From Negaprion brevirostris (taxonomy: Eukaryota), in assembly GCA_030324005.1 (NCBI GenBank), contig JARDVH010000121.1, forward strand, positions 9,991,059-10,055,058: DNA of 64,000 nucleotides. The letters run 5' to 3'. The translations under genes were made by a program, and so were the position numbers. Of this stretch, positions 17,864 through 62,134 are shown piece after piece. Numbering within the stretch: the stretch's first letter is position 1; the number at the start of each line of letters is the position of its first letter. A model generated the notes under the pieces. It saw only the letters and a program-made list of their open reading frames with translations, was not told where the DNA came from and searched no databases.

Positions 17864-17890
17864 GGGAGAAGTTGAAAATTAAAGAGGATG
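17864..17890 (+). CDS. 27-nt micro-exon (G)EKLKIKED
   Basis: Acceptor tcctttgttttag, donor atg|gtaaca. Open frame. Confidence 0.75.
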
Positions 17891-18599
17891 GTAACAACTT
17901 TTAAAATATTTATCATAATTACTTCGGAGCTTCCCCAAACCAATCCCTTCTCTGCTTCACCAACTAACCCTTACACACACTCAATCACAGATTGCATAGC
18001 TAAAAATAACTGACACACGGCTTACGTTCTAACTTAACAACTGACAGCATTGGTTATATATCAATTCATGGGCATGTTGCTTTCTGTTCCGGTTTTTGAT
18101 TCTTCTCCAAACAGAACAGGGGCCTCGGCTGACAATTTAGTTGTTTGTGTAAAAGGGATGCGTGGAATTATTTGTGCAATCGTTAGGGCGAGGCATTAAT
18201 GGGAACCAGTGGTTTACCGATTATTTCTTTTGGGTAGATCCAATAAAACGTGGCTAAGAAGAACGACAAGGTTCTCGGACATTCGGAATGCAACATAATT
18301 TGTCGCAAATTGCAAAATAAAACCGCTACTATTTTGTACACAAGCTCATCCCTGGCTGCGACTAGACTACAGCAGACCCAATCTTGATGTATGCTTAAAA
18401 CTCCCTCAGATATGTAATTCCTGTTGGGCAGGTAATGCTAGTTTCAAGGGATAGTCATAGGCAACGAGTCCCGCGGAAAGATCAACCAATGATTTCCGTG
18501 TACCTCGCCAGGGTTTTCACACAATTATTATGTCAATGATCCTGTCATAATCACATCGGGAAAGTAATGTGCATCGAAGTTCCTACAACGCATTCCTAA

Positions 18600-18800
18600 C
18601 TGCAATTTCGGCCACTGTCAGTGCGAAGTGTGCACGGTCTCCCCCTGTCTGCGTGCATTTTCGCCAAGTGTAGCTGTTTCCTTCCACAGTCAAAAAGGCG
18701 CGCATATTCGGTGCATTGATCATGCTCAATGTTTCCCGAATGTCCTTGAACAGGCGGCGGTGTGTGGTGACGAGTTGTTGGCTTTAACCGCATTGCAAAT
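18600..18800 (+). mobile_element. V-SINE fragment of the non-CR1-tail subfamily
   Basis: tgcacggtctccccctgtctgcgtg...ttccttccacagtc...gaacaggcggcggtgtgtggtgac. Confidence 0.75.
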
Positions 18801-19174
18801 TTTAAAGCAAACCTACTCCTGAAACTAATAAATTAACTTTATTTTGTAAATTTAAATGTTACAGAATGGCTGATCGCCCGAATATGTGAAATTTCATTCA
18901 TTGTGCCATTGCAATTGAGTTTGTTTGGTTCAAATATTCAGCATATATAAAAGTCGACTATTGCTTAATAACAGCTGCAGCAGGTTACATTCATAAAGCT
19001 AGGCATTGTGTTCTACATTACAGAGCTCATTGCGTGCAAGGCGTCCGTGAAAGTTTTAGGTAAATGGAAAGAATGGCTCTATCTTTAAGAAGGATAGATT
19101 GGATGACATGTTTCTCCCGTGAACTGACATGTTCGACCAACCATTTCGAAGTGGTATAATTGATTACTCTGGAA

Positions 19175-19580
19175 CATTAGGATTGATTTAGGATTACTTT
19201 TACTGGGAAGACGGAGGCTGGTGGGAGATCTGATAGTAGAGAACGAAATTACAAAAGGCATGGGAGAGTGGATAGTCAGAGACTTTTTCCCCCCAGGGTA
19301 GAAATGCCAATTAAAAGGGGACACAGATTCGGTCGGAAAGGGGTAAGATTTAAGGGTGATGCACAGGATACAGAGGGCATTTTTTTTTCACGAAAACGGT
19401 GTTTGGTGTCTGGAACGCGCAGCCAGAGGGACGGACGGTAGCATGCGTCCGAGCAATATTTAAGAGGCATCTGGATGGGCACACAAATAGAAAAGGAATA
19501 GAACGATACGGACAAAGTACGGGAAGAAGCATAATCGGCACAGATTTGGAGGACCGAAGGGCCTGACCGTGTGCCTTTTT
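19175..19580 (+). mobile_element. CR1 LINE 3' fragment
   Basis: ggaggctggtgggagatctgatag...tggaacgcgcagccagag...ggaccgaagggcctg. Confidence 0.85.
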
Positions 19581-20961
19581 TTTTCCTTTTTTTAAAATAG
19601 CGAACTTTAAAACTCGCATCGTTCTATCATGGGCTGCGTCTTTTTTTAAGGAATAATGTTTTATTACAAATGGCAGAGATCGCAATTAGTTATCAGCAAC
19701 TGGCCTCATGTGAAGGAGGCATTTCTGATAATTGAAACAGGCGTGCATAACCGTACATCAAATAAATGTTTTTTTTCAGGCAAACATTCCGGTATTTTTT
19801 TGCGATAGAATCACATGGTCTTTAATAGAGGAAAAGTGGGAAGCAAAGGATGAAGGTGATTGTACTTTACATTTTGTGACATACACCTTCGACATTCAGA
19901 TTCCCATATACAAACGAATCCGAATCAAAGTTTTGGAAAGTCCGACAGATGCAGTTTACTTAAATTCCCGCCTTTGCCACAAGTTTGGTAAACGAGAAAC
20001 ATTAACAGATAATGCGCACAGAAAGGTAGTGAAGCTGGAATTTCTAATGACGGAGTGTCTCATAAATGAAAAGGTCGACTTAATTTATCGCTAATGTCAT
20101 GTAAACCAAAGTAATCATAATCAATCTCTCATTTAAACAAAAAAAATGCATCACTATTTGTAATGTTGTCCATTGGTTCGTTCTGGAAACAACATTATCT
20201 TTGGAATTCCTGGTTATTTTCGTATCAGGGAAATTTCTTGCATTTTTTTTGGCATTTTATGTAATCTGGTACAACATGTTGCCATAAAAAACGTCAATAG
20301 GCCATGACAGCATGCTGATTTTATTATGGGATCAGGTGTAATGGATTGCAATTTATCACGTAATCGATCGTCAACAGCCACTTACACCCTTAATGATTTG
20401 CATTTAATAATCAAATTATTTCTCCTAAACATATAAACGCAACTTCTACTCTTTAAAGACTTCTTCATTTTATTTTCAACTTTGGAAGAAACTTCACGGG
20501 AATTTGTAATCCCATATGTGCACGTCAGATTGTGTAATCTTTCTCCACAATTAATTCTATGGCTATCTCTTCGAAATCTCATTCGAAATTGTTAATCACG
20601 AACTCCTCCGACGAAAACTCACCTTTCCCCCAAATTAGCCCCATGGTTATATTTAGCAGCAGATTAATGTTCAATTTCAATCGCATCAATTTCAATGTGA
20701 TCAAGGTTTTGGCGCGTTGTGTCAGAACTCGTAAATGATCGCAAACAATCCATTGTGATTAAATCAATTAGCGAGGATTGTGGATGCACAGCAACGTTTT
20801 GCGTAATGTCATTCCTGAACATGATGTATTTCAAATTGAAATTAGCGGCAGTTTCTAATAACCCGGTAGACTGCACAAGCCTTAATGTGAATAAATCTTG
20901 GGAATTCCTGTTCAAAAGGAGTAAGACAATGACCTCTATTTCCTTGTTTACCAAACTGCAG

Positions 20962-20997
20962 AACGCAAAATGTCCGACGATGTAGAAAGAAGATTAG
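20962..20997 (+). CDS. 36-nt micro-exon (E)RKMSDDVERRL
   Basis: Acceptor ccttgtttaccaaactgcag, donor tag|gtaagg. Intronic flank resembles that of 59333. Confidence 0.7.
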
Positions 20998-22466
20998 GTA
21001 AGGAAAAGGCTTCATGCACACTTGAATCCGTTACCCTTTAAAAGTGCATGGGTAAGTGTAGATACTGTGATTTCATCACTCAAAGTGCATTATTTTTGTT
21101 CCTTTGCTGGATCCCATTTTCATAAACCTGTACTGCATTTTTTAAAATTATTATTTCACACGTTGAAGAAAGACATTCCCTTTCATTTTGTGATCTCGCG
21201 TCTCAGAGAGAATTGAAAACATCAGGTACATTATACCAATAGAGTGTCGACTGAATCGGGCCGTTATGAAAGAAAAATAAAATGCAATAAAAAAAATGCC
21301 ACGGAAATGCTGCAGGGAAGCTCTGATATTTCAGCGGACAAAATCGAAATGTAAGCGAAAAAGTAAGCAGTTGTTCAATTCATGTCCTGCACTTCATAGG
21401 CACGCCGTATATTCCAAATTTCGCTAGATTATAAGTAAAATCACGTTTTAATTTTAGGCAGTAAATGTTACCAACGTTACCAAGGCAATTCTGTGTGTTT
21501 AACTGAAAAAAAAAACGCGAAGGTAGTGATATTGGAAAAAGGATATCAACCATTTGATGTCCGAATTGTTTTTTTTGTGCCAGGAATGCCCCAAGCCGAT
21601 ATTGATAGAAACAGAAGATTGGTGCGGGGTACTTCTTTTGTGTACGACACGCAGCCAGCTTTCTTGAGTAAAATAAAACTTGAGTGACACAGTAAGTGCT
21701 ACAATCTCATCTCAATAGTTTAAGCGTAGGAAGAAGTCTCAGTTGTATCGAAAATATCTGGCGAAAGGGATTGCGAAATAATGATCGGGTTTGAAATTTG
21801 CACTGAAATCCAATGTTGCACACAACCACACTTGTCCTGATTTAATGAATTTGGGAGAGAAAATTCAACAGATTTGTTTTTATCTACTGTACAGGAGCCA
21901 TGTCGTAGAGTGGAAATTTAGTACAGATTGCGCTGAAAGTAAAATGATGGATAATATTTCCCACGGCAGGTATATGGAAGCAGGAGATGAGACTTGCCAT
22001 GTTATGATGGTGGAATTAGGCGACCAGTTGTAGGAAAAGTTAAACCAAAATGTCAATGTATTGAAACAACATGCCAAGGTTTCCCAGAATGCACATTCGC
22101 CCTGAGGGCAAGTAAACGTCCATTAGATCTAAATAAAACATTCTTTTCAAATCTAAAATGAACAACTATCCTCCTCTACCGGTATCCATCGATCTACTGT
22201 GACGTCCATTCTGATCAATCAAGATACTTTGTAGTATTTTTAATGACTTATCTGGTAATACCGCGCTTCTGCTTCCGCCTTTACAAACAGTGTTGTAATC
22301 TATGTACAGGGTAGCAATTTGAGTTTGTAGCTTCATTGACTTCGCTTTCCACTGTTAATTGATGTGAATCATGTGGTTTCGGTATAATTGCAACAGTTGA
22401 GCATCAAACGCTCGAAATCACGTAAATGATATTTTTCTAACTCACGTTTTCAATATGCTTCAGGAA

Positions 22467-22888
22467 ATAGAACAAAGAACAATACAGCGCGGGAAACAGG
22501 CCATTCGGCCCAACAAGCCCGCGCCACCATTTTAACATTATGAGTCCCTCTCCACCCATGACCCTTGTCTACGCTTATAACATTCCACATTGAGGGAAAA
22601 CTAATTTAGAGACAATTTTTTACATCAATCAGCCTAAGAGCACGTTTTTGGGGCGTGGGAGGAAACCGGAGCACCTGGAGAAAACCCACAGGGTGCACTT
22701 TCGGGTGCACTGAGGGACAAATTACCATGACCATCTCTTTCGACTGGGGGTGGAACCGGAGGAAAAACACGAAGTCACAGGGAAGACATGCAAACTCCAC
22801 ATAGACAGTGAACTATGCGGGGAATCAACGCTGGGTCTCAAGCGCTGTGAGGTAGCAGTGCTAACCATTGTCCCACCACGCTGCCCCA
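22467..22888 (-). mobile_element. V-SINE with CR1-type tail and an internally duplicated V-domain segment
   Basis: Head gctgtgaggtagcagtgctaaccattg...gctgcccc. Two V-domain motifs (ggaggaaaccggagcacc and ggtggaaccggagg). Tail atagaacaaagaacaatacagc. Confidence 0.85.
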
Positions 22889-23100
22889 ATGTGTTATGTT
22901 AACTGGACCTTACCGTAATTATCTTTACTCCTTAATTTCTTCACATCCTCTTCACCTTTGACCTTGTTTCCAGACACGGGCAACAGTCCGAATACGCTTC
23001 CTGAACCATTTCAGTTGCTTGGATTATTCTCGTTGTTCCACCGAAATAGACATTACGTGTAGCTGCAAAGAAGCTATATCATCAGTTGTTCCATTATCGC

Positions 23101-23176
23101 ACAGAATCATAAAAATCCTACATGCAGAAAGAGGCCATTTGGCCCAACGAGTCAGCACCGACCACAATCCTACCCG
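23101..23176 (-). mobile_element. HE1-like SINE 3' tail fragment
   Basis: Matches the tail of the SINE at 8313-8390 (aggccatttggccca...accacaatcc). Confidence 0.75.
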
Positions 23177-24489
23177 ATAAAATTTATTTCTCTTTCTTTA
23201 GACCGCTTCATCACATTTCACCGGATTCTGCAATCTTACCTGAAATAACGGATCACTTTTTAATTCAGCATTAAGTCCATTTATTCCCTCCTTTTCTACG
23301 AATGTTCCTTCCAAACAACATGTGTCCTCATTCCCCCAGCATTAAATTTGGATTGTTCCTGTATCCCAAAAGATCATAACTGTGTTACGTGCTCCTTCTT
23401 GTACACATGAGCAAACATTGCCAGAACAACTAAAATCTTGAAATGTATCAGAAACTTGCTCCACACCAGCTTCTCCAAAAGGTTGTGTGTTGTTTTTTTT
23501 TCCACTTCAGCGACAGCCATGATTTCCTTTGCCACTTTGACAAATTGCAGTGGCTCATCCGGCTTTTTTGTATTCGCTGTCTCATTATCGTTCTTAAGTC
23601 AACAACACTGCGTCTATGCACACTCAATTGCATTAACACGGAAACACACAACCTTTCTTCTCACTAACTGACTTTCATATGTTTCTTAGTTAGATTTCGG
23701 CAAACTGTCCTTACTCTCAACAACGAGGCACTATGTCTTTGGCCACGTGAAGATTGTTATTTCTTCCGTTTAAAATTCATGTCGAAGAAACAATTCCGAT
23801 TTATTCAGAAATTAAAATGAGTTGCTATTTTTGCTGAGAATCTCGCAACATTAACTGATCGGTCTTTCACATGGGTCCTTGTGACTTCGGGAATTGATTT
23901 TTGAAATTCTTACAAAGTAACTACTCTCGTGTGAAAGACATACGTTTGGGCTAATTTGAATGATTTTACCCACGTATCAAAAAAAAAGTCGAATCATTCC
24001 AATTTTCTCGAGGCTGGCATTTTTCTCTTTTGGGATTTATAAACGTCGTTCTGTGGGCTTCTGGCGCGGGTTCACGTACATTGAAGATTACCTTTCTTAT
24101 GTCCACATAACTCGTAGATAACTCCTCTGGAAATGAAACAAAAATTTTGCGTTAAATTATCCAGCAACTTGATTTAAATAAACATTTCGCACTTGGCCTG
24201 TGCTCGTTTTCATTGTGCAGTTACTTTCTCAATTGGAATAAAACAAATTTCAGAGTCAATTTCTTCAAAATTTGCCAACACTTGAACAATCTGCCCATTA
24301 GGCATTTGACAAGTTTTTTTTTTAATTATCTTTCCAATCCGTCTCTCTCTCTCTTATCGTCTCTCTCCATCTCTCCTAAAGCAATTCTGCCTGAGTTTTT
24401 CTTCCGTCATGGGCACCCTTTCTCATTCATTTGCCCCTCTCGTGGATGAGGGGAGAGTTGGAGAGAGGCGGAGATGAACAAATGTGGAA

Positions 24490-25241
24490 GTCATGCAACG
24501 CTACTTGCCCCAACACATCAATAATCACATAAACCCATGGTCTGCAATCCCCCCAGCCACATGTCCCCGATAACCAGAGCCCCCACATACCTCCCACCCC
24601 CTCAGCACATGTTCTTCAGAATCACAGCTCCTGGGAACGTTGAGAGGCTGCAACATTGCTATCTGCATGGGCTTTGTGCACATCCTTCAGCGTGAAGTGG
24701 GCTGAGCGTGTTAGGACCCAGCAGCATTGCAAGACACCAGTCACTGCTCAGATCCGGGCCGTGATGCAAGACAAACATCGCAGACCTGCAGAGCAATAGC
24801 GCCCCCACTTCCACACACACACAGACACACACACACACTCGCAACAATTATGGCCGCAACAACAGGACACCCGTGAGTAGCAGAGAGCCGTCGGACGCGT
24901 TGCACTTACCTCCTCGCTAACTCTCACTGATGTAGCCCCCGAATCAGAGTTTCAATGACCATTTCCATGTCGTCCCGATTCCGGATTCGCAGAGGCGTTG
25001 CTAAATGGGAAATGCTCATAAAGTTGAGCGGCAGTTCATTAATTCAACCGAAATGCTTTTGCGTGTATGGGAATCGCCTTTGCGCCCTTGTCGGGAGCCA
25101 ATCGGATCGCGGCCGTTGCAGGGCCCCGGGAAAGTCTCCATATGCGCAGACGGGGTGCTGGTCCCGGTAATTGCTCCCGCCCGAAATACCAGGTTTACGC
25201 GCCCGAAAACGAGCGCGACGCAATGATAAAATCGGGCCCAT
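24490..25241. mobile_element. GC-rich non-autonomous DNA transposon remnant, Harbinger-like, ending in a TIR
   Basis: Abrupt GC/CpG-rich block ending atgataaaatcgggcccat, which matches 30096-30114 in inverted orientation at 18/19. Superfamily assignment is from recollection. Confidence 0.55.
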
Positions 25242-28200
25242 CGTTTGCAATACCTGACTGAAAACACTGATTAGCCAAAGTCACTGGTTTCAACTTTAGT
25301 AATCCCAAGTCAAACAACGAATCATACTTCTTAATACCGTTACTGCGCAATTGGTTTTAGTCTCATGAAACAGAACTAGAAGTTATGTTACGAAAACTCA
25401 ACAGCACAGCCAGATTTTTTCCAGTTTTGAATAATTGTGCTGGTAGGTTATTCTGTGCAAGGAAAAAGCCCACCAGTAGTTAGTGACTGTTTTAAGTAAA
25501 ACAATCAATATTTAACAAACCAGTTTAAATGCAACCCTAAAAAAGCAGGGTGTCTCCTAACCATTGAACAACAATTAAAACAGGAAAACAAAAACGACAA
25601 TTTACCTTCTAACGTATTACGACATATTCAATTCCAAACAATCAACTTGTATCTTACAAATTAAAATGCTTATCAGAACCCATAAAAAAAAACTCAATAT
25701 GATAAGTGAAAACAGTCCTGAATCATTCAAAGGGAGACAAAACATTTCGTCAGTTTGCACAAAACCACATTCTCTAAGCCGCTTTCAGGCACAACTGTAA
25801 ATCTGCTTTTCTGCTACAGATTTAGCTCCTCTCAGAAGCCACATCATCATTTTGTCTTGTGTGCATTAATCCAGTGCTTACCCAACCCCGTCTTCCATTT
25901 AATTATTCGAAACACTGGTTTAAGCCTCCATCTCAGCAGAAATGAACGAACTCTACGCTATGACCGCGCTACATGATCAGAATGAAAACAAAAATCGTAC
26001 TCTCCCAGCATCTCAGTTAATTGTATCCAGGCGAACCAGCTCCCTGTGCAATGGACCAAAAGATAATAGGTGCACATATTTACAGTTAATCTGTCATCGA
26101 GTTCTCCATCTCCGTATAATGCAAGTATTGTGGGTTTTGGTTGGCCTAGCATTGCACTTTGCTGCAATCATCTTGCCATGAGTTTCAGAAAGGTGAAAAA
26201 ACAATCACGTACTGTTAAGTGCAGGTCTTTGTTATTTGCATGAAAAAAAAATCCCTTTGTTGACAATTTGAGTTATCCGTAATTAAAATTAAAATTCTGA
26301 ACAAGTTGTTTTTGGGATAAGTCCTTCAGATTTGGAAAACAAAATACGTTTATTCCACCGGATATTGCAATGTGTTTGACTTGTTCGCCTTCATTGTTAC
26401 GTCAGAAAAAATGGCATGCTAGTTTCACATTAATATTGCCTCCCGATAAAAATGCGATTAATCACGTTCTGACAAATCAGACCTCTCGAACCCTCCTTCG
26501 ATATTTTCTCACATGAGAAATGCACATTTTTCTTGAATACATGAAAATAAATTCCCACTTTGCATGCATATTAAAATTGATACATTATCGATTGATATGT
26601 GATTGAAGCAAACTTTATTCTTCCTCTTGTAAATCCTTTCCATCAGATATTAAAATAAATTATTAATTATTGCTTTTGCTCACGCAACCTACAAACCACA
26701 ATTGTCCCCTCAAACCAGCAGTACGTTGCAGACCTATTTCTGTTTCTTTCTAATCTGTAACGAGCAGTTACATAGTCGATAAGTGTACATCTATTTCTGT
26801 TTATGTTAAAACAATTTTCCCGTTAATATTAGTAAATTATATCGCAATATTAATGCAGCTAGTGTACCGATCTTGCTCACCGCAGTTCTGTCCTTACATG
26901 TTTAGGTTGCAATCCGTTCCCTTTATTCCTCCTACTCATTAATTGATCGTATGCAGTTCTTATCTTCCGATTCCCTTCCTAGTATTATCGAACCGCCTCA
27001 TATTATGCATCTCATTCTTCCGTTTTCTTTATTTTTTAATTACAGCTTCTCATCCGCCTTCCAAGTTACTTCATATCAAGTGCACCACATTCAAGTTCAA
27101 CATACCATATTATATTAAGTTGCTATACACCCCTTTCCCACGGTAGTGCCACCAGTTACGTGCTGCCAGGATGTGAATCTCTCCTACTTGCATCATGCCT
27201 TAAACTTTCTGCGCATGTAATAGTAATGGATATGATTGCTGTTTTCCTTATTATTTTAGTGGAATTGTTCTGGTAGAAATGTTAGTTCTATTCTTCGAAT
27301 GAACTAAACGATCATGATTTCAGCAATTGTTACTATCAAGTCCCACTTTGGAGTTTCATTCTGAGCTTCCCAAAATATATCTTCGAAACTCAATACATGT
27401 TCACTCGGTCCAAAGAGAGAACGAGGATTTTTGGATCACGGACTTCTGAATGCAGGATGTTCTTCACGTCCCCAATAGTTTTTTTTTGTGTTGGCGGCAG
27501 GAAGGCAGGATGTACGATAATATATAACAAAGGTAACAAAAAAAAACTCTGTCCCTTCGAATATGGGATCTTTCAGAACTACTGTATCGCTAATTTTAGA
27601 AGTTGCATCCCGTGATGCACTTCGTGCTTTCTTAAGACAAAACTAATGATTTAGGCATAGTATGTGTTAATAGAAGAAATATTTCAGTCCATTTTTCTTA
27701 ACCGAATTGAATCTTCGAACATGCTATCCAAGTTCGCTGTTTTGGAAACTGAAGACTGTTCCGTCGACGATGAGATTTACAAATTATAGCAATATGCGCT
27801 TAACTGACTTTGTGATTCTGCTCAATCGTTCAGCAAGATCACCCCGATCCAATTGTAACTTCAACATTGCATTCCCGCCTACCACCGCTGACCGTTCACA
27901 CCCTTGTAAATCGCACATCCAAATAAAATCTGCAAAATAAATTTAAATTCTCCTCACATTATATTTGCAGAAAGAGCGCCCCCGAACACACTTGCATTGA
28001 AGAGCGATGAAAAATAGTATTTCAGAAATGTGCATCATCGTCTTAAACAAGGGAAACTACCTAATCACGTAAACTGGCAATATCTCTCAGAATTTTGAAG
28101 TTTTTGAAAAACACAGTTACGAATTAGCAAATTGTCTTTCACTAAAAAGAGATGAAATGACATGTTTGACTAAAATCCTTAAAGATGTTAGTTATCCACC

Positions 28201-28387
28201 CTTAGTGATAACTTTTACATTTATTTTCATTTATTTTCATGTACGGATCTATTCCTGGACTATCTCTCTGTCCAACATAGGCCTCCACATTTTGATCAGG
28301 AAAGCCAATGGAAATAGTTTTGATGCGAATTAGATGTTCCAGAAGTCACGTTCTCAAATGGATTATTATTTAATCGAATAATTGAAG

Positions 28388-28411
28388 ATGAGATGAATAA
28401 AAAGAATGAAG
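28388..28411 (+). pseudogene. 24-nt degenerate exon copy (D)EMNKKNE with polypyrimidine tract apparently deleted
   Basis: cgaataattgaag|atgaga here versus cgaataattcattttcttttag|atgaga at 43071. Donor aag|gtaatc is intact. Confidence 0.45.
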
Positions 28412-29301
28412 GTAATCAATCAATGAGATTTCGGGACAATGTTTCCTCATTTCATCTTCGAGTTAAACAGAAAAATAAACTCTAAAATTATGTGGCGCTC
28501 GGGAGTGAATGCAAATCGTGTCATTATTTTGCCAATTGTCTCACTGCAGTTCCCAGCTAGCGAAATATGTTTTCTTGCACACAAATTGTAGTTTCCTGCA
28601 GTTCAGTCAGTTAATCCAAAACGATATCTCTCCAATTTTTCTCTTGGGCAATGGCGTTAACCATAGTTTCTGAATGCTGTTAAGAACTGCATTTCGGCAT
28701 TTTGTGTCATCAGTGTATGTCTTTGCGGTGGGTACGGCTCTTTAGGTTACATAGAGAATGAAATTTGAAGTGTGTTTTGTACTATAAACAAAGCCACTAC
28801 AACATAATACTTTTCCTGCAGGATATGTTTGCTGCCTGGCTTGGTAGGATTGGGGCCAATGACTGTTGCACACTCTGTCCAACAACTTCCCGCATCTTCC
28901 CTCATTCACCCATTCACCACGTGACCACCTCAATTTTCAAAACTGCAATTATTGGAAGGACAAATTTTATCAGATTTAAAAATGTGAATTAATGTTTCGA
29001 AGCGTCCGTCATGAAATCAGCAGCGCGTATTGGTTTTAATTATTCAAGGATTTGAGGACTTTGTTTATGATACATGTAAAGTGTGGCATCTTCTCCCGAA
29101 AAAAAATATAAACTGTTGCATCTTGTACATAAAGATGCCATGTTTGCAGATGAAATTTTTAGGGCCAAAGTTTCTTCGCCATACTTATGTTGCAGCTTGG
29201 CTTTAGATTTCCATGCCAAAGTGGATTAAAGTGACTGCTTTCCTATCCATGGATAATGAATCATTTCAAAAGCTGTTGTCAATATTTTTTCTTCATTTCA
29301 G

Positions 29302-50144: not shown

Positions 50145-50993
50145 NNNNNNNNNNNNNNNNNNNNNNNNNNNNNNNNNNNNNNNNNNNNNNNNNNNNNNNN
50201 NNNNNNNNNNNNNNNNNNNNNNNNNNNNNNNNNNNNNNNNNNNNNNNNNNNNNNNNNNNNNNNNNNNNNNNNNNNNNNNNNNNNNNNNNNNNNNNNNNNN
50301 NNNNNNNNNNNNNNNNNNNNNNNNNNNNNNNNNNNNNNNNNNNNNNNNNNNNNNNNNNNNNNNNNNNNNNNNNNNNNNNNNNNNNNNNNNNNNNNNNNNN
50401 NNCTACATATCAAGATGTTGAACATTCGTGGCTTTACATTTTACTTATACAAAGAAGTCTAATAAAGTATGCAAAAACGACTTGCTCTGCAAGACGCACT
50501 ATCAATGAGTATTCGCACTGGCGTGTTCCAAATACGTTGCTCTAACGTCTTCAGCAACAGTCCCCCACACTTAGAGATGACTAGTGACAATGATACTGCA
50601 TTATAATGCCTGTTTTTCTTTCCTGTCCCTCTACCGAAAAACAAACGTTGCATTCCTTATTTGCTAATTCTGCATTTCACCATCAACGGTAACATTGCTA
50701 ATTAACTTCCATGGATCTAGTACCTCAGCAAACTTAAACCATTACAATTAAGATGTCGGTCGTGGCATGGATACTTGTCAGCTCTTACATCTAATTACAT
50801 TTCGAAATCTATGTCGCCCCTCCTGTTAGTTGATTTAAGTTCTTCTCTTCATTTAATGTACTGTTTTGAGTATATCCCTGGCTTCGCGTTTGAATTCCCT
50901 AAAATTGAGGAAGACAAACATAAAACGCTTGATCAATTCAAACCCCCTCGCATATTTGTAATCTGATGTGGAGATACTTCTTACTGGTAAACA

Positions 50994-51064
50994 CAGCAAG
51001 AAGTCTCACAACGCCAGGTTAAAATTGGTTTTACTTTAACCTGGTGTTATGAGACTTCTTACTG
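50994..51064. repeat. Hairpin formed by two inverted Penelope termini
   Basis: cagcaagaagtctcacaacgccaggttaaa / tttaacctggtgttatgagacttcttactg. About 30-bp arms, same terminus as 3475-3500. Confidence 0.8.
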
Positions 51065-52004
51065 ATTTTAATTTTGCGGGCCTACGCTTTGAACAGTCTT
51101 GCGTGATTTTTTTTTGTCCTTTTTTTTGCAGAATATCACACTAACTTTTTTTTTACTTAAAGCGATTATCACCCTTAACTGACTCGGAGCCTCGTTCAAA
51201 ATATTCATTTTGAAGTGCCAATTATCGCCTTGAGATTGTCTCAAAATAATTCATGAACATTCCGTTTCAGGTGAAGACCATGTCACTCATACATCTCATA
51301 ATTCCACCGATCATCATCAGTGGAAATTATTTCCTCCCACACCAGTATTGAAACGATCCAACGCATTTACCCGACAGCTATTATTCGGATATTTAGATAT
51401 TGATCCACATGTTGTTAAATTGAGGTTCATTTTCTTCTAATTCAGCTTTCAATGGGATAGGCAGCCAAGTACGCCAAATTTCCTTAACATCGACATTTAT
51501 CTTATACATAGATCGACCACGGGGAATGCATTTTTCTGCATTCATGTAAATCTTGTTCTCTGCCTGAGAACAAAATCCGCATTAATATCACGGGCAAGGT
51601 CACAATAGCTCCATGTTATCGATTACGTACNNNNNNNNNNNNNNNNNNNNNNNNNNNNNNNNNNNNNNNNNNNNNNNNNNNNNNNNNNNNNNNNNTTTTT
51701 TTAATAAATGGTGGCGTGGACACTCGATCAACTGCTCAGAAAACCTTCCTATAAGCTCGTGAGGTCTCAAACCTGTTGGACAATTTAAACGTTGTGTCAT
51801 CTTCCTTTCGATGTTTGGTTTGCTTCACGTCACACCTTTCTCCACTTAACCATATGCTATACAAAAAATCGATTTTGGAACATGTCACTTTAATTCATGA
51901 TTTGCGTACTGCACCAGAGATTATAAGAGTAGTCAGGATCCTCTGAGAAGTGCAGCCAATGCATCAACCTCAGGAATATTTTTTTTTTTAAAGACAGCAT
52001 CGTC

Positions 52005-52500
52005 GAAAGTAGGGGCAGAAGTAGGCCATTCAGCTCTTGGAGCCTTTAACAACATTCAGTAAGATCTTGGCTGGTAATTCACTATATCTTCACACCCCTT
52101 GATCCCTTCAACGACAAAGGCCACGTCCATCTCCCTCTTCAACACATCTAAAGAATAGGCCCCGACAGCGTTCTGCGGTAGAAAATTCGACATGGTTGCA
52201 ACTCTCTAAGTAATGATTTTCTTCCTCTTGCCAGTGCTGAATGGCCTACCTTTATTCACAGACTTTTCTCCCCGCAAATCCCCAACATCGGTACCATTCT
52301 TCCCGCATCTAGCCTGCCCAGTCGCATCAGAATTTTGTACATGTCTATGATTCCAGTGAGTACTAGCTCAGTCGATGCAATCTCTCTTCATAAGATAGTT
52401 ATCCCATTCCATGAATCTGTCTACTGAACATTCGCAGAACTCCTGCAACCTGAAAGAAAGTGCTCCCTTATACCAGGAAAGCAAAACTGCACGGTATCCC
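52005..52500 (-). mobile_element. CR1 LINE 3' fragment
   Basis: taggggcagaagtaggccattcagc...ttctgcggtagaaaattc...aaaactgcac. Confidence 0.8.
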
Positions 52501-52723
52501 ATGTAGCCTCTGGGAATTACATACTATCGTCTCCATATTATTGACGTTATTGCACTGCACACTTTAGGACATATGCATGCCCTTTATCAAAAGAAGAACT
52601 TGTGCAACAGAAATTACATTTGGTAATTCGCTTTAACATGCAGCGCGGATTTCTATTCTTAATTTCTAACATGCAACAATTGGAGCGTTTGTTGAAATGC
52701 AGTTGTCTCCGTCTTTTGAGCAG

Positions 52724-52750
52724 AAAGAAAACTCAAAGCTACAGCAGAAG
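52724..52750 (+). CDS. 27-nt micro-exon (E)RKLKATAE with GC at the donor
   Basis: Acceptor ctccgtcttttgagcag, boundary aag|gcagct. Paralogue of 36112. Confidence 0.5.
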
Positions 52751-53446
52751 GCAGCTAATATTTCCTGAAACAAATAACATGTGGTCATTGCATATAATCT
52801 TTCTCACTTTGGAAAATGTAAATTCACAACGCCTCAAAGCATTCAGAAAAAAACAACCCATGCGACATTCGAAGTGATCTGCTGTGGATGTTGTTTTCCT
52901 TCTGAGGTGCGGAGTTTTGGCTGAAGCTTAAATGGGTAGTTGGTAAGAATGAACAAAATAAGACATGGCACAACTTCTAGTATCTAAACCACTGACTGAA
53001 CAATTGCCAGTCATCTTAACGGCAAGAATAAGTTAATGTCATTAGAGTTTTTGGTGAACAGTAATGTCGTATATTTAGAATCAAGAAATTTAGCGCACAA
53101 TAGGCTAATTGCGAAATTGATTCGAGGCAGGCATCTACTTGCAGACGGAGTTAGAGAGTGGTGGGCGGGAAAGATCAAAATTCAAAATGGTTAGCAACGC
53201 TATCCATGTATCTAATTTTGGCCTGACCAGGTTTCGCGTATTGTACGCAGGGTTGGTCATCCTTATGGATAATGACACGAAGCGTTGGGGAGGCAGTAAA
53301 CATGCTGAGGTGGATAATAGGAGATATCCACGAATTTATATTTAAGACAACAATAGGCCAATTGGAACTGACAAACGGTGACTTGATAAATGTGCTAAAA
53401 TCAGCGAAACAATGCGTGCCATTTCACGGAGGAATATAGACAGAAA

Positions 53447-53472
53447 TATATATATATATATATATATATATA
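53447..53472. repeat. (AT)n microsatellite
   Basis: Directly visible. Confidence 0.9.
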
Positions 53473-54349
53473 AGTAACAATGGTTGCCGATGTTGAAGGC
53501 ATTTTAATATCATTTTTGAACATAACTTTCAATAGACTGCATATCTTGAAAATCGGCCAGTAGTTATATTTGCATCATAGTCATCTGGTGAGTTGTTGGA
53601 ATTGACGACACGGCAGCATTGCTATCGTTCAGGAACTAAGTTTTTGGTATAAAACCAAAAGTGAAGTTACAACATTGTAACAGCTGGAGAAGAATATTGA
53701 CAGAAGTTCTGCAAGGATACGGTTACCGTTGACTCAATTCGTGACACTGTTCTTTAGATTCAGGAACTATTTGTTCCTTGTATAATTTCTGAGTCTCGCA
53801 TTTAAACCCCAGAAGGAACAGATTTGGGATCCAGAAAATTGATGTAACAATAAAAAGATATACCGAACATTCAGTTAATTAAATTTGTTCCCTACGTTGC
53901 GACAATCAAAATAGCCTAGAAAAAAATGGAATTTAAGTGAAACATATGCCCACACTTTATTCTGTATTGATGCGTTGTTGAGCCGCCAAGTCTTAATACT
54001 ACCTCAGTGAAAACAACTTTTTAAATTTGCTTTGCACATCACCCGATATTGTGCGTTGCCATTGCGTTCATCTGCTGCTTAAATGTGAACGATTCAAATG
54101 TTGAGTACTATGTAGCCCTCCGGGACAAAACATGCGCTTCAGAAAATTTAAACAACAAAGTACATTTAGATGTTATTCGATGAAAGATGGAATAAATGAA
54201 ATCAAATTGGGCTGCGCGACGAGGAGTTAAAGAGAACAACTGCTCAGTTGTGGTGAAGGTTTGGATGAAGCTGGGGAAAACATCTGAGAAGCTTGACTCG
54301 AGGTCAGAAGCTGACAAATATGGGCAGTTTTTCGTGCTTAAAATTGCAC

Positions 54350-54665
54350 TGAGGCACAATGTTTACTACTGCTGCCTCACCGCTCCACCTATCCGAGTTA
54401 AATTCCGGCCCTGGTTTACTGTCGGTGTGGAGTTTGCAAGCTGTCTCCATTTCTCCGGGTGGTAACGCAGGGTTCTCAAGTATGTGCAGAAAAATTGGAT
54501 TTGCCATGGTAAGCTGCCCCTAATGTGTAGCCTATGTGGATTAGGGGTGATGCATGCCCTTGATCGTGGGATGGGGCAGAGACATGGACAGATGCAATTC
54601 GAAGGGTCGGTGTAATTTCGATGGGCCGGTTGGCCCTTTCCTGCCCTGCAGGGATTCTTACTTAT
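54350..54665 (+). mobile_element. HE1-like V-SINE with CR1-type tail
   Basis: actgctgcctcac...gtgtggagtttgca...gatgggccggttggccc...gggattct. Confidence 0.8.
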
Positions 54666-54914
54666 GAAAGTAGAAAGCAATTTTCAGATCCAATTTTGTG
54701 GTCAATAATTAGAGCCAAAATTGTTTCCTGGATTCTCAAGGAATTTGGAGTTTGGAACATAATTGGTTTGATGATATATCATATTATATATGATGTGACA
54801 TTGTGCTATATATATGTAATAAACGTGTATTTATTAGTCACAAGTAAAACTTACATTAACACTTGACGAAGTCATTGTGGGATTCCCATTGATATAGGCA
54901 CAGATATGGATGTA

Positions 54915-55250
54915 TGCACCGGTTGAATGTTCGATTTGGGTCACAACCCGTGCGAATTCTGCACATTCTCCCCATGTCTGCGTGTGTTTCCTCTGTGTGT
55001 TCCTGTTTCCTCAGNNNNNNNNNNNNNNNNNNNNNNNNNNNNNNNNNNNNNNNNNNNNNNNNNNNNNNNNNNNNNNNNNNNNNNNNNNNNNNNNNNNNNN
55101 NNNNNNNNNNNNNNATCTATTAGTTAGGTGAGTTTTTCATGCTAAATTATTGCTCAGTGTATAAGAACAGGCGACGGAGAGTGGGGAATGGGTGATTTTT
55201 ACAGTAACTTCATTGCAGTGTTGATGTAACCCTATTCTGACACAAATAAA
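54915..55250 (+). mobile_element. V-SINE of the non-CR1-tail subfamily, gapped
   Basis: tgcacattctccccatgtctgcgtg...gaacaggcgacggag...acagtaacttcattgcagtgttgatgtaa...tgacacaaataaa. Confidence 0.8.
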
Positions 55251-56366
55251 TATGTTTGAAACAGACTAAAAAACATGGGCTCCAAGGGTTTCTCTATGGG
55301 TGGTATTTTCTTAGTCGCATTCATACGCACGTCAGCAGGAGATTAGCAATGATGCAAAAAACAAATGCATTTCACGTCTGGAGTGTTTACCTTAACGATA
55401 CGACTAATTTAACCAGGAACTACGTGTCCCTCTTGGAAACAAATTTACGAAAAGGGACACATTGATCGATGTATATGTATTTCGAAATGACCAATAGTGG
55501 TCATTTGCAATTATGCATATTTGTCTGGATTAGNNNNNNNNNNAGTTTGGTGAGACGCATACATCAAAATGGATAGCACAGGCAGTCTTTTTGTAAACAG
55601 TGAAGAAAAACTATTTTTTTAAAGTTAAAGAAAATAACAATGTACATGAAATCGAAGCGCATGATGCCCGATGAAAATTAAGTGTACGAATTTCGAAAAT
55701 ACCAGCGAAAATAGCAGCGTTTCCCGGAGATTATCCCTCGTTTCCATATTATATGGATGTTCTCAGAACACAATGAGGCACACCTTTCCGAAATAACGTG
55801 TCTTTGTAATAATATAAGCCAAATCCATCACACACTTTCCAAAAAAATGCAGTTCGAATGAGCTGTCTGGGATGTCATCGTTGTCGGCTTTCTGATGCTA
55901 CCACACCATGTTTTATTGAGGAGAATATCTGCTGTATGAATTGACTCTGAATCTTAGAACAATGTGGCTCTCGTTGGATGTTGGCTTGTCTGGCGGTTCG
56001 ATAGAAAGTAGCATCTTGGCCTGTCATGTGTACAGTGACTACTCCCTCCGTTTCGTTTCACTAATATTTCAAATTGTATTTCGTTGTCTGCATCTCTCAA
56101 AAATCGTCACTAGAGAAGTTAGTGCATTGTTCTTTCATTCCTCTGTGTATCTGATTTAGTTTCGATGTCTATTACTTTTTGCTGCTGGGAAAATCACATT
56201 ATTATGTTTTTTTTTTCAATGCTGGTTACTATGGCGGCTAGCAGGAATTCAACCAGTTTCTGCACAATTTGGGGTCCATGGTTATTGTTCTTTTTTAAAG
56301 CATTTTTCAGCATTTTCCACGACAATATACTAATTAAACCTTTTTTTTTTCAATTTACTTATCCAG

Positions 56367-56402
56367 CATTAGACAACTACAACGCTACATTGAAAGAGTC
56401 TG
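56367..56402 (+). pseudogene. 36-nt pseudo-exon (A)LDNYNATLKES with donor GT>TT
   Basis: Acceptor caatttacttatccag. Followed by ttcggaaaatg, versus gtctgaaaatg and gtcagaaaatg in its paralogues. Confidence 0.6.
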
Positions 56403-58188
56403 TTCGGAAAATGTGTTTCTTGATATACTTTGTTCTGAAGCATTCATATTATTTGCTAACGACTGCAAAAGTATTATCAGACTTTTTTTTGCAGTATGAT
56501 ATCTTTATTGTACTGCGTGTGGTTCTAATTATTCCTATCAGATTACAAATTATGGATCCCCAACTCATGCGACATGATACTTGTTCACTTCATAATGTAA
56601 CACCTCTCAGGAAAATAAATTATTTTTTTCTCAAAGGCATTTTAATGTTAGCGGGATAGTTTTGACCTTCTATATTTCAATATTTCTATTGAAATTCAGT
56701 TAAATTTGCAAGTGAAAATTAAACAACCATTGAATTCAGTAAACACGTCCCTGTTGCACTGCATTACTTTAGCTATGGAAAGTTGCCATATTTTCCCAAG
56801 CGGCCTCTATGTATTGAATCAGAACTGACGACTGAGATGACCCAGACAACAACTTAGTTAATGGTATAATGGCGGAACAACAAGTGATGCTTAGCTATCA
56901 TTAAAAAAAAATCATTAAATAATTAAATGGTTCCGGGGCGAAAGAACTGCGATGGATATTGCTACCGTTAGGTAGCCTGAAGAACATGAAGCTAATTTAA
57001 AAAAAAACACACATAAAAGTGAGGTAACAAAGGACAATCTTAATTCGATCAGTAATGTATTTTACTTGCACGTAAAGTAAATAAGGCATGCAGAATGTAG
57101 GACTGCAACAAATGAGTGGCCTGAGTTGAGATATATCCGGAAGTCATATGGCGGGGAAACGGGGAATCTGGCATTATTGAGTTTTTAAATGTTTGTTCTG
57201 CTTTTCCTCTACAACGAAAAAGAGTTATCCGGTACACAAAGAATAGAAAGTTTGAAGTTTCATTGACTGACTTGGGAATGGCAAGAACATATGGTTAGGC
57301 TGGATGCTCTTAACAATTAGAAGATTCCCCGCACAAGTTAAAAAAGTGAAACCACTTACAACAAACTTTAACAGAGAAAGGAGGAGGCAGTGCACCAGTG
57401 ATGAAGATTTGAAAATGTTGCACCATTTTAAGGATGCAAAACATCTGCAGGACAATCTGAATACCCTCCTCGTTGGGGTTGTTTTCAAAAATAATATCCA
57501 TGTATGATTATAGATAGCCATGTCGACAACTATATCTCCCCATTTGAAGGCGGTTTGTGTAGGACGAAATTAACTTTTTTTTTATCGAATCACGCTTACA
57601 AGGTAGAAAAGTATCTGGTTGTCCACAAAGATAGTCATTTAAATAAAATGACAAAATCCATTTGGTCGAGTTCAACATAACAAACTAATCAGAAATATTG
57701 AAGCCAATGCGACAAAACAGTTCGGGAAGCATTGATGAAGAGCACGTTGTTCTACAGGGGAAAAAAAACAGGTAACTGTTTACCGTTTAAAATCGCATAC
57801 AAATGTTTTCCATTGACAGCTGCTATGGGTGTTAAAAAAAGAACAGTTTTCAATGCTCTGTTGAAACGATGTTTTGGGCTATTTCGAATTTTGTTAATGA
57901 CAGCGATGAATGCTGAACGGATTTAAATGTAGGAAACCAGAATCGGAATTTAGAATAAGGAAACATCAACTAGTTAAAGACATCAACTTTCAAACTTTGT
58001 TATTCGATGAACTAATGCATTCCTTGAAAAGTAAGAACATGATCTGTAATCTGCATATCTTGAAGCTGTTTCAGTCTGTTACACCGCCGTAAATGTAAGA
58101 CAATATTCTAAAACAGCGCAGTAGCAGCTGTGTGCAATCTGAATGTTATTCCAAATGGCGTTTTAAAGAGAAAAATGTTTTTTTTTAG

Positions 58189-58215
58189 AGGAAATGTTGA
58201 GGATTAAAGATGACG
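58189..58215 (+). pseudogene. 27-nt pseudo-exon (E)EMLRIKDD with donor lost
   Basis: Acceptor tgtttttttttag. Followed by acaattatt, versus gtaacaactttt after paralogue 17864. Confidence 0.55.
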
Positions 58216-59332
58216 ACAATTATTTCAACATTATTTTTGAGCAATTAATTTGAGATACCCCCAGTAATCCCCCAGTTGAACTTAAATAATATGCTTTTAT
58301 CACAGGTCGGGGTTGTCTTTTAACTGAACGTTTTGACTACTGATCAGGGACAAAAAAAAGNNNNNNNNNNNNNNNNNNNNNNNNNNNNNNNNNNNNNNNN
58401 NNNNNNNNNNNNNNNNNNNNNNNNNNNNNNNNNNNNNNNNNNNNNNNNNNNNNNNNNNNNAGTACTCGATTTTCAGCTGCTGGCACTTTACGAGTATTTT
58501 ATGGAGGCTGAATTCCTGAGACAGATTATTGTTATTGCCCTCTGGATTTACAGATGGTGAAGGTGAGACCCATATGTTCTTTGCAACACAATTAATGGTC
58601 GATAATTGTCCAAATACTTACGATTAAATTCTTGACATAAGCATGTTCAACAACATCGTATCAATCGTGTTCAGTATGAAAAGATCCTTCCGCCAGTATC
58701 AATATTTCGGGTAACAAGCAAACAAGTATAATTATTTAAAACAAAATCGCATCTTCGAGCCTCAGCAGCATTTACAGAATCATTCCAAGTCTGCTGGTCA
58801 TTTTGCGTTGTTTAATTTAATTATGTCTCTTAATTACATGATATGTTTCCATGTTTTCCCACTTCATATTTTGAAATATTGATTGAATTGCACACATCGT
58901 TATACATTCCAACTTGTACATTACGCCTTTAATAATCTTCCCCTCAATTAGCTCCGGGATTATCTTTAGCATCAGGTTACTAACACATTCAATCCCCTCA
59001 ACGTCAAATAACAAATATCAAGTTGTAGTTTTCAAAACTTTTATCCATATTTAGTCTAACCAACGACGAGAAAAGCTCACGCATTAGTAACATTTCAATA
59101 GATTTTAAAATCTGTGTTAGTCATTCAACATGCTAAAACTTTGTGGTCGGGCTAATTGCCGCAGCCATGTTTTTTTTTGACTATGCTCAATATGGCCTTT
59201 TCCCTACAGAAAGTAAAATCACATTTAACTGATCCTGAAGACTGCAAGCGATCAGATGTTCATATGTATCAGGCATTGCTGTAGAAATCAGTTAATCGTC
59301 TTTTTTCCCCCTCGCTGTTTCTCGAAATGCAG

Positions 59333-59368
59333 AACAAAAGAATTCCGATGAATCATCAAAAGAAATAG
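59333..59368 (+). CDS. 36-nt micro-exon (E)QKNSDESSKEI
   Basis: Acceptor ctcgctgtttctcgaaatgcag. Donor tag|gtagggacaagccttcatggcac, versus gtaaggaaaaggcttcatgcac after 20997. Confidence 0.7.
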   Translation, partial: NKRIPMNHQKK

Positions 59369-60552
59369 GTAGGGACAAGCCTTCATGGCACATCAAAATT
59401 TTAGCACCCTTGAAATTCATTATTTGTAGAAAATTAATTGTCCCCTGAGTAGATGGCACTCCGCAAATTAAGTGAAAAGAAAACAGAACGATTGTTCAGT
59501 TTCACATTAGTCTCTGATGTGCGTTTGTGTCCACGCCTGCGCGCATCTGTGTGCGTGTGTTCGTGTGTGTCTATGTACCTGTTTGTGCTCAGTGATTTAC
59601 TTGTTCAAAGTTCTTGAAATGCGACCCATTATTCCGCATGTTTTTTTTTCAAACATGTATGGCAAATATATCCTTGTCAGAAACATTGTTGAAGGAATGT
59701 CAGCATTGTTTATATACTTGCGCTCGCCTCTGAGACAAAATTACACAGTAAAACATTTGAATACATCAGTAACGGCGTGCAGTTCGATGTTCAAACGAAA
59801 TATGGAGCAGGACGTTAATGGTACAAACCAGTAAATATAACTCAATGCTAGCAGTGAATGATTCGATGCAACCCTGAACATGTCGCAGGGCGAAAAGCAT
59901 CATTTGCGTAAGAAAGTGCAACGTTTCTCGAGTCACATTATTTGCTTCATAACTATTCGTATGCAATGAATTTTCGAAAGGACTTCTGCTAGAAATGCGA
60001 GCTGTTCGAAATGTAGGGAGAACAAGGCCACATCGTCATATTTTCTCAGCACTTACTATTGTCGCCAACGTCACTCCCAGTACATTAGCAGATACTGCCC
60101 CAAAGGTAGATACCGTGGAAACGGAGGTCAGTGTTTTGATTACCATGATACTTTCCCTATCAATATTGTCTTCAGAAGAAACAGACAGAAGCATTAGGAC
60201 GCTTTTGAATGCGATATTTTATTGTATTTGCACACGAACTTGCGATCATCTCTCTATCTTGGACCGCATACAATTGCGGAAAAACATAAATTAAAATAAT
60301 TAATTTGATCTCATTCGACTGTAAATTGACACACGTATTGTAAAAAATTAGCACAATGAATTGTGAAGCAATGACCAAATATGCANNNNNNNNNNNNNNN
60401 NNNNNNNNNNNNNNNNNNNNNNNNNNNNNNNNNNNNNNNNNNNNNNNNNNNNNNNNNNNNNNNNNNNNNNNNNNNNNNNNNNNNNNNNNNNNNNNNNNNN
60501 NNNNNNNNNNNNNNNNNNNNNNNNNNNNNNNNNNNNNNNNNNNNNNNNNNNN

Positions 60553-60789
60553 GCGGGGGGTGCGGTGGGAGAACAACTTTGGAGATGGGCGGAAAGACAG
60601 GTGAGTGATTTGATGTGTTTTAATGCAGTTTAAATATGTTTTCACTGTCATTACCGGGAACTTGTCGGTGCGGATTGAATTTTCCAGCACGCTAGGAGCA
60701 CTTAAGCCCGGCCAGATTTAGAGGTGCTCCACACGTTCGGGGAACTAGTGGAAGGCCCCACCGTAATGAAGCGGGGCAATCGGGGTCCA
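60553..60789. mobile_element. GC-rich DNA transposon remnant (Harbinger-like end)
   Basis: GC-rich block after a gap, ending aatcggggtcca, similar to aatcgggccca at 25230. Confidence 0.4.
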
Positions 60790-62110
60790 AAAAGAGATCA
60801 TTTCGGGAAAGTTTTGTCAATGTTATCTTCGAAAAAAAAATCAGCAACAGCCGTTTTAATATTTAGCATGATGAATTGAATGCGAAGTGTATATTTGTTT
60901 TTGCTAAGCTCTTCAGTGCAGTTTCCGTGGCTAGCAAACTCTTCGTTATTCAAATTGACGTTTTCTTTCCTGCAAACTTGAACAGTTCTCTTTTGCAGTG
61001 TGTTACACTTAGTCATGCTGTTGTTCACTTGGAAATGAGCTGAGCTCGTGTCCATGAGAATAGACACAAGGAGCCATTTCATGGCGAACAGCAATGGGCG
61101 AACAATTGTCTTGCCACTGTTAGTGCTGCATCAAACTATACCATCCTTGTACATTTTCACATTCTTCAATCTCCAGTTTATTTTTAACAATATATTTGCC
61201 GCTTTCTCTTTCTCAACTCGAAATTCAACATGGTACAGTCATACAGTAGTGGGTTATCGTTAACATTTGCTTACAAATTCAGTCATATGCTAAGGCAATG
61301 TTTCCCACAATAGAGGATTTTATATGTGCACTGAGAATCAATTCTGGAGCATTCGGAACAGTCTCCAGTCCTCCAAAATTCCAGTAAGATCCATGATGTT
61401 GAACAGCAAAGTCGCCGAGAGTCATGCCAGCCATAGACAAGCCCTCCCAGTTTCCACCCTTGCTATAAATCTGAACTTGTTCAAGATTTATGATTGTCGC
61501 TATTTTTGTTCTCCTGCATCGGATCTAACTGTAGTATTGCATGCTAAGACTTGGAGCCCATTGTGGATGGTAAACCCCAGATGAAGTCCGAGATGCAAGT
61601 TATTCGGGGGTGCCGTACCATTTTACACTGTTTACCATGTCTTACATCCAAAAGCTAATTTAAGGCAGATATTCCGTTTGCAGCTTCCACAAATTTTGGA
61701 TTTGTTCCTAAACAGAAAACAGGCCATATCACTTAATCCAGTTTTAACAAATGCAGCTTTCCGTTTGCTCTCTGTTCAGTCGCTCTGTCAACCTGCCATC
61801 GGTGTTGTGGATGGCTCTATAGACTGCAACATGTCTTTGAAGCTGTTTCTGTGGCAATCTGGAAAAGTATATTTCACACAATAAAAGTGTGCTCCCTATG
61901 AATAACAAACAGTCCCGTTATCTTATGGGAGACAATCAAAATGAAAATACGTTGCCTACACATACTTCAGCCTCAAAAAATCTCTGTTGTCACTCCTCTA
62001 ATAATCAAAATGTGGGCATGTAGCACAATATTTTGTTCGTGAATTCACATTGAGAAATGTATTCCACCAGCAAGGTTTTACTGACAGTGTTAGTAACGTT
62101 CATATTTCAG

Positions 62111-62134
62111 AAAATTTGCATGGAAAGATCATGA
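62111..62134 (+). pseudogene. 24-nt degenerate exon copy (E)NLHGKIM
   Basis: Acceptor ttcatatttcag, weak donor tga|gtagat. ENLHGKI resembles EKLKGKV (43071). Lies at the expected position after 59333. Confidence 0.35.

Follow-up and report, generated by a model that had tools for sequence, protein, structure and literature searches.

The DNA considered here is a 64-kb stretch of the shark Negaprion brevirostris (contig C121:9,991,059-10,055,058, of a 2.69-Gb genome), hereafter called the window. It was analyzed together with 750 kb of upstream and 400 kb of downstream sequence, i.e., 1.214 Mb in all, in coordinates that extend the window numbering. The window carries a series of predicted plus-strand micro-exons, which form part of a much larger array of such exons. 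Within this array, a block of several exons is duplicated in tandem, with collinear similarity between adjacent units in introns as well as exons. Five such units, U1 to U5, lie head to tail between 17.3 and 131.5 kb and run beyond the window, which itself contains U1, U2 and the start of U3.

For the comparison of units, local repeats were masked and the resulting alignments were chained, with reversed sequence and the flanking blocks U0 and U6 as controls. Collinear chains were obtained for all ten pairs of units, with 5-11 alignments each, scores of 322-1001 bits, 1.3-3.5 kb aligned and 58-64% identity. The reversed controls of these pairs gave 0-1 match (at most 35 bits), and the 11 pairs involving U0 or U6 gave 0-1 match and no chain with U1-U5. 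The chained similarity reaches intron stretches far from any exon, and its order is kept over 15-28 kb. Within the window alone, self-comparison yields off-diagonal matches at about 15-25 and 38-40 kb that cover both exons and introns. The low-stringency self-comparison proposed in an initial annotation of this DNA thus reveals off-diagonal similarity far above background. The regular unit of 18-20 kb described there is replaced by units of 15.3-28.3 kb, with approximate boundaries; copies of the first exon slot, a, are spaced 25.2, 15.1, 17.8 and 27.7 kb, and 18-20 kb is close to the average of U1 and U2.

The block comprises about nine exon slots, in the order a (27 nt), b (36 nt), c (27 nt), d (36 nt), e (24 nt), f (36 nt), g (27 nt), h (36 nt) and i; that is, exons of 27 or 24 nt alternate with exons of 36 nt. 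Slots a-h add up to 249 nt, or 83 residues, and to about 96 residues with slot i, in place of the six exons and 63 residues originally suggested. The slots were also assessed from their flanks only: for 128 exon-like sites, the exon and its splice sites were removed and 8,128 pairs were scored, with the threshold set at the null maximum plus 3. Forty-four pairs exceeded it, recovering slots a, b, c, e, f, g, h and i wholly or partly; slot d fell just below it (68 vs 73), and one of the joins was false. With exons plus 100 nt of flank and corrected labels, a comparison that is partly circular, the nearest neighbor lay within the same slot in 32 of 32 cases, and eight of the nine slots formed clades, slot e excepted. 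Slots f and h are sister slots. A genome-wide search with a slot f flank returned three places, all within the array; it missed the copy at 49227, and hence is no proof that the block is unique.

All 13 exon starts listed in the initial annotation are preceded by AG, and the flank motifs quoted there (gtctgaaaatg / gtcagaaaatg / ttcggaaaatg; cttttgaacag / cttttgagcag) are present as written, while three exons of the window had been omitted (Table 1). Its grouping of exons into classes holds in part: five of the 11 within-class pairs, compared as exon plus 100 nt, score above the null maximum of 41, and the rest do not. The class A3 pair 17864/58189 is retained as slot a, the class C pair 29302/49227 as slot f and the class A2 pair 36112/52724 as slot g. 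Class B is divided, in that 20962 and 59333 are indeed partners, in slot d, but 41528 belongs to a separate slot i, where it pairs with 74439; neither of these two copies looks sound. Three other placements were mistaken. Exon 43071, assigned to class A1, groups with 17864 and 58189 and is a slot a copy; 62111, assigned likewise, matches neither A1 copy, has a weak GT after 24 nt and has a counterpart in U4 without an acceptor; and 56367, the extra member of class C, resembles that class because it belongs to slot h, the sister of f. Its partners in slot h are 70095, 98347, 102130 and 130664. A mere trace of slot h in U1 (score 42 vs null 31) was left uncounted.

Table 1. Units and exon slots of the super-repeat in and beside the window, in window numbering.
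Feature	Position	Strand	Size and splice sites	Remarks
U1	17300..42500	+	25.2 kb	approximate boundaries; collinear chains with U2-U5
U2	42500..57800	+	15.3 kb	slots b, c, d and slot i exon not found
U3 (start)	57800..64000	+	17.6 kb (whole unit)	continues to about 75,400, beyond the window
U4	about 75,400-103,200		27.8 kb	neighboring DNA
U5	about 103,200-131,500		28.3 kb	neighboring DNA
Slot a, U1	17864..17890	+	27 nt, AG..GT	initial class A3
Slot b, U1	19024..19059	+	36 nt, AG..GT	absent from initial list
Slot c, U1	19829..19855	+	27 nt, AG..GT	absent from initial list
Slot d, U1	20962..20997	+	36 nt, AG..GT	initial class B
Slot e, U1	28388..28411	+	24 nt	initial class A1; 3-nt shifted acceptor common to all four e copies
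Slot f, U1	29302..29337	+	36 nt, AG..GT	initial class C
Slot g, U1	36112..36138	+	27 nt, GC donor	initial class A2
Slot i, U1	41528..41564	+	37 nt, frame-shifting from AAG acceptor	doubtful exon
Slot a, U2	43071..43097	+	27 nt, AG..GT	groups with A3
Slot e, U2	45822..45845	+	24 nt, AG..GT	absent from initial list
Slot f, U2	49227..49262	+	36 nt, AG..GT	
Slot g, U2	52724..52750	+	27 nt, GC donor	
Slot h, U2	56367..56402	+	36 nt, dead donor (TT)	sister of f
Slot a, U3	58189..58215	+	27 nt, dead donor (AC)	donor AC in organism C, GC in organism B
Slot d, U3	59333..59368	+	36 nt, AG..GT	
Paralogous stretch x	61901..62340	+	at most a weak 24-nt exon	between slots e and f; includes 62111
Earlier micro-exons of the gene	832..13054	+		outside the super-repeat: 832 (dead), 1139, 1885 (stop and dead donor), 5146, 6895, 9130, 13019

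Splice-site and codon modeling of the interval from -590 to +369.6 kb identified 159 exon-like hits on the plus strand and 17 on the minus strand, adding up to 4,881 nt. Of these 159, 139 are 27 or 36 nt long, seven are 21 nt and three are 24 nt. In the core array, lengths of 27 and 36 nt alternate in 62 of 79 steps, vs a shuffle mean of 40, and none of 5,000 shuffles was as high. The exons are predicted to be in phase 1 at both ends, with lengths that are multiples of three. Together these hits likely represent one giant gene of ~950 kb, with about 150 micro-exons on the same strand, ending in a single B30.2/SPRY exon. From the shared strand, the continuity of the array and the single B30.2 exon, we infer that the exons of U1-U5 are part of the same mRNA as that exon.

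The B30.2/SPRY exon, at +369.6 kb, is the sole one in the 1.214 Mb. Its half domain gives a SPRY match with an E-value of 4e-4, below Pfam's cut-off; the two halves, around a 10-base gap, are both open and both match relatives. In a profile comparison with solved structures, the best match of the B30.2 domain is BTN3A1 (E 1e-30), followed by TRIM21 (1e-26). Within the 1.214 Mb, where 14% of the gene span is N, motif and tblastn searches detected no IgV or IgC exon, no RING motif, and no RING or B-box tblastn match better than E 0.39. Downstream of the B30.2 exon, 108 frames on the plus strand were compared with Pfam, and the only matches were weak ones to reverse transcriptase or spurious. Scans for hydrophobic starts returned several candidates, e.g., at -573.7 kb (+), and at -587.6 kb (-) for a neighboring gene, among many chance matches. 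Of the related proteins, P0016, P0151 and P0034 have a hydrophobic N-terminus, either a signal or an anchor. To the left of -589 kb, 20 exon-like hits are on the minus strand and 2 on the plus strand, a reversal suggestive of a neighboring gene in head-to-head orientation. Contig C121 contains six related, divergent B30.2 exons, that of the host gene included, at 6.23, 8.31, 8.805, 8.85, 10.36 and 10.95 Mb, and several of them have similar micro-exons in front. One of these genes, which ends at 8.85 Mb (-), seems to lie head-to-head with the host gene near 9.40 Mb. Reads from five sequencing runs (X1-X4, X6) cover the introns evenly and behave like DNA, and are uninformative on expression.

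Other duplications are found along the same gene. Block duplications occur at -213/-181 kb (5.4 kb aligned, 67% identity), at several places between -69 and -37 kb (65-77%), at -32/-7 kb (58-62%) and at 97.8/101.6 kb (71%). With identities of 65-77%, the multi-exon duplications in the regions -214 to -176 kb and -69 to -37 kb are younger than U1-U5. Another, old one relates window positions 324-1901 to -28,070 to -26,091, at 58-62% identity, and includes exons 832, 1139 and 1885. An inverted copy of a 36+27 exon pair lies beside its source, at 340,219 and 340,822 (-) vs 341,194 and 341,814 (+), and an isolated 36-nt unit is found on the minus strand at -141,204. In the 5′ part of the gene, from -485 to -451 kb (L092-L095), there are seven exon-like units of 21 nt, the size seen in BG and butyrophilin genes, unlike the 27/36 pattern. 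A 178-codon frame in an intron of the gene (L010:7305-7838, +) reads by eye like the C-terminal part of a retroviral-type envelope gene.

A pair of 36- and 27-nt exons encodes 21 residues, or three heptads, with hydrophobic residues at the heptad a/d positions, namely 1, 4, 8, 11 and 15, and often a cysteine at position 4. The predicted protein would include a coiled-coil spacer of roughly 1,600 residues, with the B30.2 domain as a binding head placed far from an N-terminal signal or membrane anchor. At the ~0.15 nm per residue of a coiled coil, 1,600 residues would amount to a rod of roughly 240 nm. Presentation of the B30.2 head by this spacer is the likeliest role suggested by the sequence. 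If the protein were secreted, its regularly placed cysteines could cross-link chains.

How the copies of the block have fared was examined for slots a-h, of which 30 copies were found. Twenty-two retain AG..GT and an open frame, three have a GC donor and five are dead; 14 of the 45 slot-unit positions were not found, some of which may sit in gaps. The numbers of usable exons in U1-U5 are 7, 4, 2, 7 and 5. Because U2 keeps only four splice-competent exons and U3 only two, the length of rod gained per copy is far below that of a complete block. Both splice dinucleotides and the frame are retained in 25 of 44 exon pairs, vs 7% of 31,718 matched intron windows, and for the 21 GT-GT pairs pN is 0.26, pS 0.58 and dN/dS 0.29; exon pairs are non-independent, and the search favors intact exons. 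Sequencing run X1 confirmed the dead donor at 58216. Compared with organisms B and C, the 27 sites of this copy (58189) show 4 and 2 differences, respectively, against ~7% in its flanks; the exon is no less divergent than its surroundings. Overall, a dN/dS of about 0.3 between copies is consistent with selection having kept many copies intact while others died.

The duplications appear to be ancient. In organisms B and C, the listed contigs that correspond to 17-37 kb are roughly 91-96% identical to it, as compared with about 60-65% identity between units and a synonymous difference of 58%; thus, the duplications would be some 6-15 times older than the species splits from organisms B and C. 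Transposon insertions differ among the units, as the initial annotation had stated: 31 of 44 repeat-to-repeat matches are off the chain, and of the 13 between the same anchors, none lies at a matching distance from both anchors and two do so from one. Most insertions therefore seem to be unit-specific, though a few shared old ones are possible. Dating the repeats by their identity was abandoned, since the first 13 of 51 repeat intervals had matched themselves; the other values (58-99%) overlap the flank identity. The chains, the flank clustering and the repeat positions support the view that the array grew long ago through tandem duplication of a block of several exons and acquired most of its repeats later. 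Among the repeats themselves, inverted interspersed pairs were noted at 32080-33614, 34931-35752, 3052-3883 and 37921-39900 of the window, and very high-copy elements at 22.3-23.7 kb and 31-36 kb. The exact 42- and 52-nt duplicates at 3505-3695 and 38134-38337 flank 100-base N gaps, and are unmerged assembly overlaps rather than real repeats.

We consider it probable that the window covers the first two units, and the beginning of the third, of a super-repeat with five units and about nine slots, in a giant coiled-coil and B30.2/SPRY gene; the super-repeat likely arose by repeated unequal crossing-over. Such exchanges inside the gene would have added exon pairs and then whole blocks: pairs were presumably first copied into a block, which was then copied at least four times, long ago. 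Since every exon is symmetric and a multiple of three in length, a block can be duplicated, skipped or lost without a frame shift, and single copies can die at little cost. The length of the rod would then change, likely, by birth and death of exons.

Several observations weigh against this reading. The dead, weak-donor and missing copies enumerated above belong here, as does the dN/dS of pairs that include a dead copy, which is 0.35 vs 0.29 for live pairs; the two values being so close, the ratio reflects past rather than present constraint. The slots were defined in part by the same alignments used to test them, and exons were sought with a matrix trained on intact exons. That the exons are spliced and functional is deduced from DNA, a gene boundary could be hidden in the N portion of the span, and the hydrophobic starts are no more than candidates for a first exon. 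Slots d and e fit the hydrophobic heptad pattern poorly, and the loss of a single exon of 9 or 12 residues would break the heptad register; thus, the rod is probably more regular elsewhere than in its super-repeat part.

The copies might instead be alternative cassettes: a single gene would yield rods that vary in length with the units or exons spliced in by each tissue. Every exon is symmetric and leaves the frame intact, several of the donors are weak, and annotated relatives have isoforms that differ by steps of 9 or 10 residues. No sign of mutually exclusive pairing of exons was noticed, although no search aimed at it was made. This model is compatible with the explanation preferred here and would add to it; we regard it as possible, though doubtful. 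A bleaker view, which we think unlikely, is that the super-repeat is mostly a graveyard of pseudo-exons skipped by the mRNA, or that the whole gene is decaying. The losses just mentioned would be expected on that view, as would the two usable exons of U3 and the divergence of copy 58189, which lacks GT in all three organisms. However, 22 of 30 copies retain their splice sites and frame despite the 58% synonymous difference between paralogs, the retention in exon pairs far exceeds that in intron windows, and the B30.2 exon is open on either side of its gap.

The two other explanations concern the array as a whole. Each unit could be a separate gene or gene fragment, the 950-kb run then being several genes. 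Whole-gene duplication did occur, as the six related B30.2 exons on the contig attest, and assembly gaps account for 14% of the span; yet there is a single B30.2 exon in the 1.214 Mb, no unit has a terminal exon, and the summed exons, of ~1,600 codons, fit one protein like a 1,697-residue relative from Callorhinchus. We therefore judge separate genes to be improbable. Least credible, and in our view very improbable, is that the similarity between units reflects independent duplications of single exons or pairs, transposons or shared base composition. This idea draws on the derivation of all exons from two related types, on the sister relationship of f and h and on the one false join in flank clustering. 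The chains, in contrast, survive repeat masking, keep their order over 15-28 kb, include distant intron and vanish in the reversed and neighboring controls.

The super-repeat shows how a very long rod protein may be built and pruned, by nested duplication of micro-exons that leave the frame intact, a history still legible in the dead copies. The duplication mechanism is familiar; the scale, and a gene family that is unstudied, are what make the locus of interest. Few genes of the genome probably have more exons than the host gene, and annotation can easily overlook genes made of such micro-exons. Exact predicted junctions are provided by the slot map, and the number of units can be compared across sharks and rays. 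A bolder proposal, which we advance as a rather unlikely one, is that cartilaginous fishes possess a cluster, peculiar to them, of giant genes that have hardly been annotated and that encode B30.2-tipped rods of ~200 nm, either secreted or anchored in the membrane. As in a ruler, the length of the rods would be set by block duplications nested within one another, together with combinatorial splicing of cassettes of 9 and 12 residues; the five-unit block would be a standing cassette library under ongoing birth and death.

In a quick tree of B30.2 domains (SH-aLRT support 99), the host-gene exon clusters with the other five related exons on the contig, eight named proteins, all from cartilaginous fish, and one unnamed protein, apart from TRIMs and butyrophilins. 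The Callorhinchus member mentioned above, XP_042192744 ('nuclear-pore anchor-like', 1,697 aa), has a hydrophobic N-terminus and is predicted to contain a long coiled coil; the motif of the 36-nt exons is matched 10 times in it (shuffle mean 1.1, maximum 4). Models of this kind are also found in Leucoraja (XP_055510696), Scyliorhinus (XP_038668997), Narcine (XP_069775385) and Hemiscyllium (XP_060706632). These cartilaginous-fish models resemble the host gene in belonging to the same clade and in having coiled-coil-like sequence before the B30.2 domain, with the 36-nt motif shared by that of Callorhinchus; they carry automatic names only, by which alone the family is known. No RING or B-box was detected with Pfam in six relatives, and no ortholog with more than 42% identity in B30.2 was found. 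Word-index searches for long orthologs, which are weak negatives, returned none, only Callorhinchus, or mostly TRIMs and butyrophilins. In the Atlas, long chordate clusters with a SPRY domain came up at 0.90-0.92, which is no more than a lead. A literature search, with subscription journals and supplements outside its scope, yielded no paper on the shark family or the block; in a study of fish TRIMs (PMC3137616), the term 'CC-B30.2' is absent from the main text and the passages concerned do not describe the shark family. Coiled-coil and B30.2 proteins from a cichlid (1,535 aa, P0208) and a turtle (836 aa, P0175) have B30.2 domains outside the shark clade. There are hints, then, that this design arose repeatedly.

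Among known systems, TRIM proteins (RBCC-B30.2) differ in that no RING or B-box exons were detected at the shark locus. Butyrophilins, described as having IgV and IgC domains, a few heptads and B30.2 (PMC12841164, PMC4046983), have heptad exons followed by B30.2, as does the shark gene, but the latter lacks detected IgV and IgC exons and its B30.2 falls in a separate clade. The best IgC2 matches of the genome are on contig C84 and elsewhere, outside the locus; at 87-101 Mb of C84, a cluster of IgC2 exons with ordinary B30.2 exons is probably the true butyrophilin/TRIM region. Nebulin, in the account consulted, also grew by super-repeats, and its NEB triplicate region varies by unequal recombination (PMC7863720). 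It likewise appears as a giant rod-like protein lengthened by duplication of multi-exon blocks via unequal recombination; there is, however, no homology, and nebulin needs intact super-repeats, whereas the shark copies are old (about 60% identical) and each misses different exons. In the chicken BG genes, as portrayed in the sections of PMC4046983 that deal with them, an IgV domain and a transmembrane exon precede a coiled-coil tail encoded by 13-36 exons of 21 (or 24) nt, whose sequence groups form recurring patterns, and unequal crossing-over has been proposed. The layout described there thus differs from the shark gene in its 21/24-nt exons, its IgV domain and its lack of B30.2, as compared with about 150 exons of mostly 27/36 nt, a B30.2 exon and no Ig exon found. 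What the two have in common is a long coiled-coil tail built from many small exons, variable in number and arranged in recurring groups.

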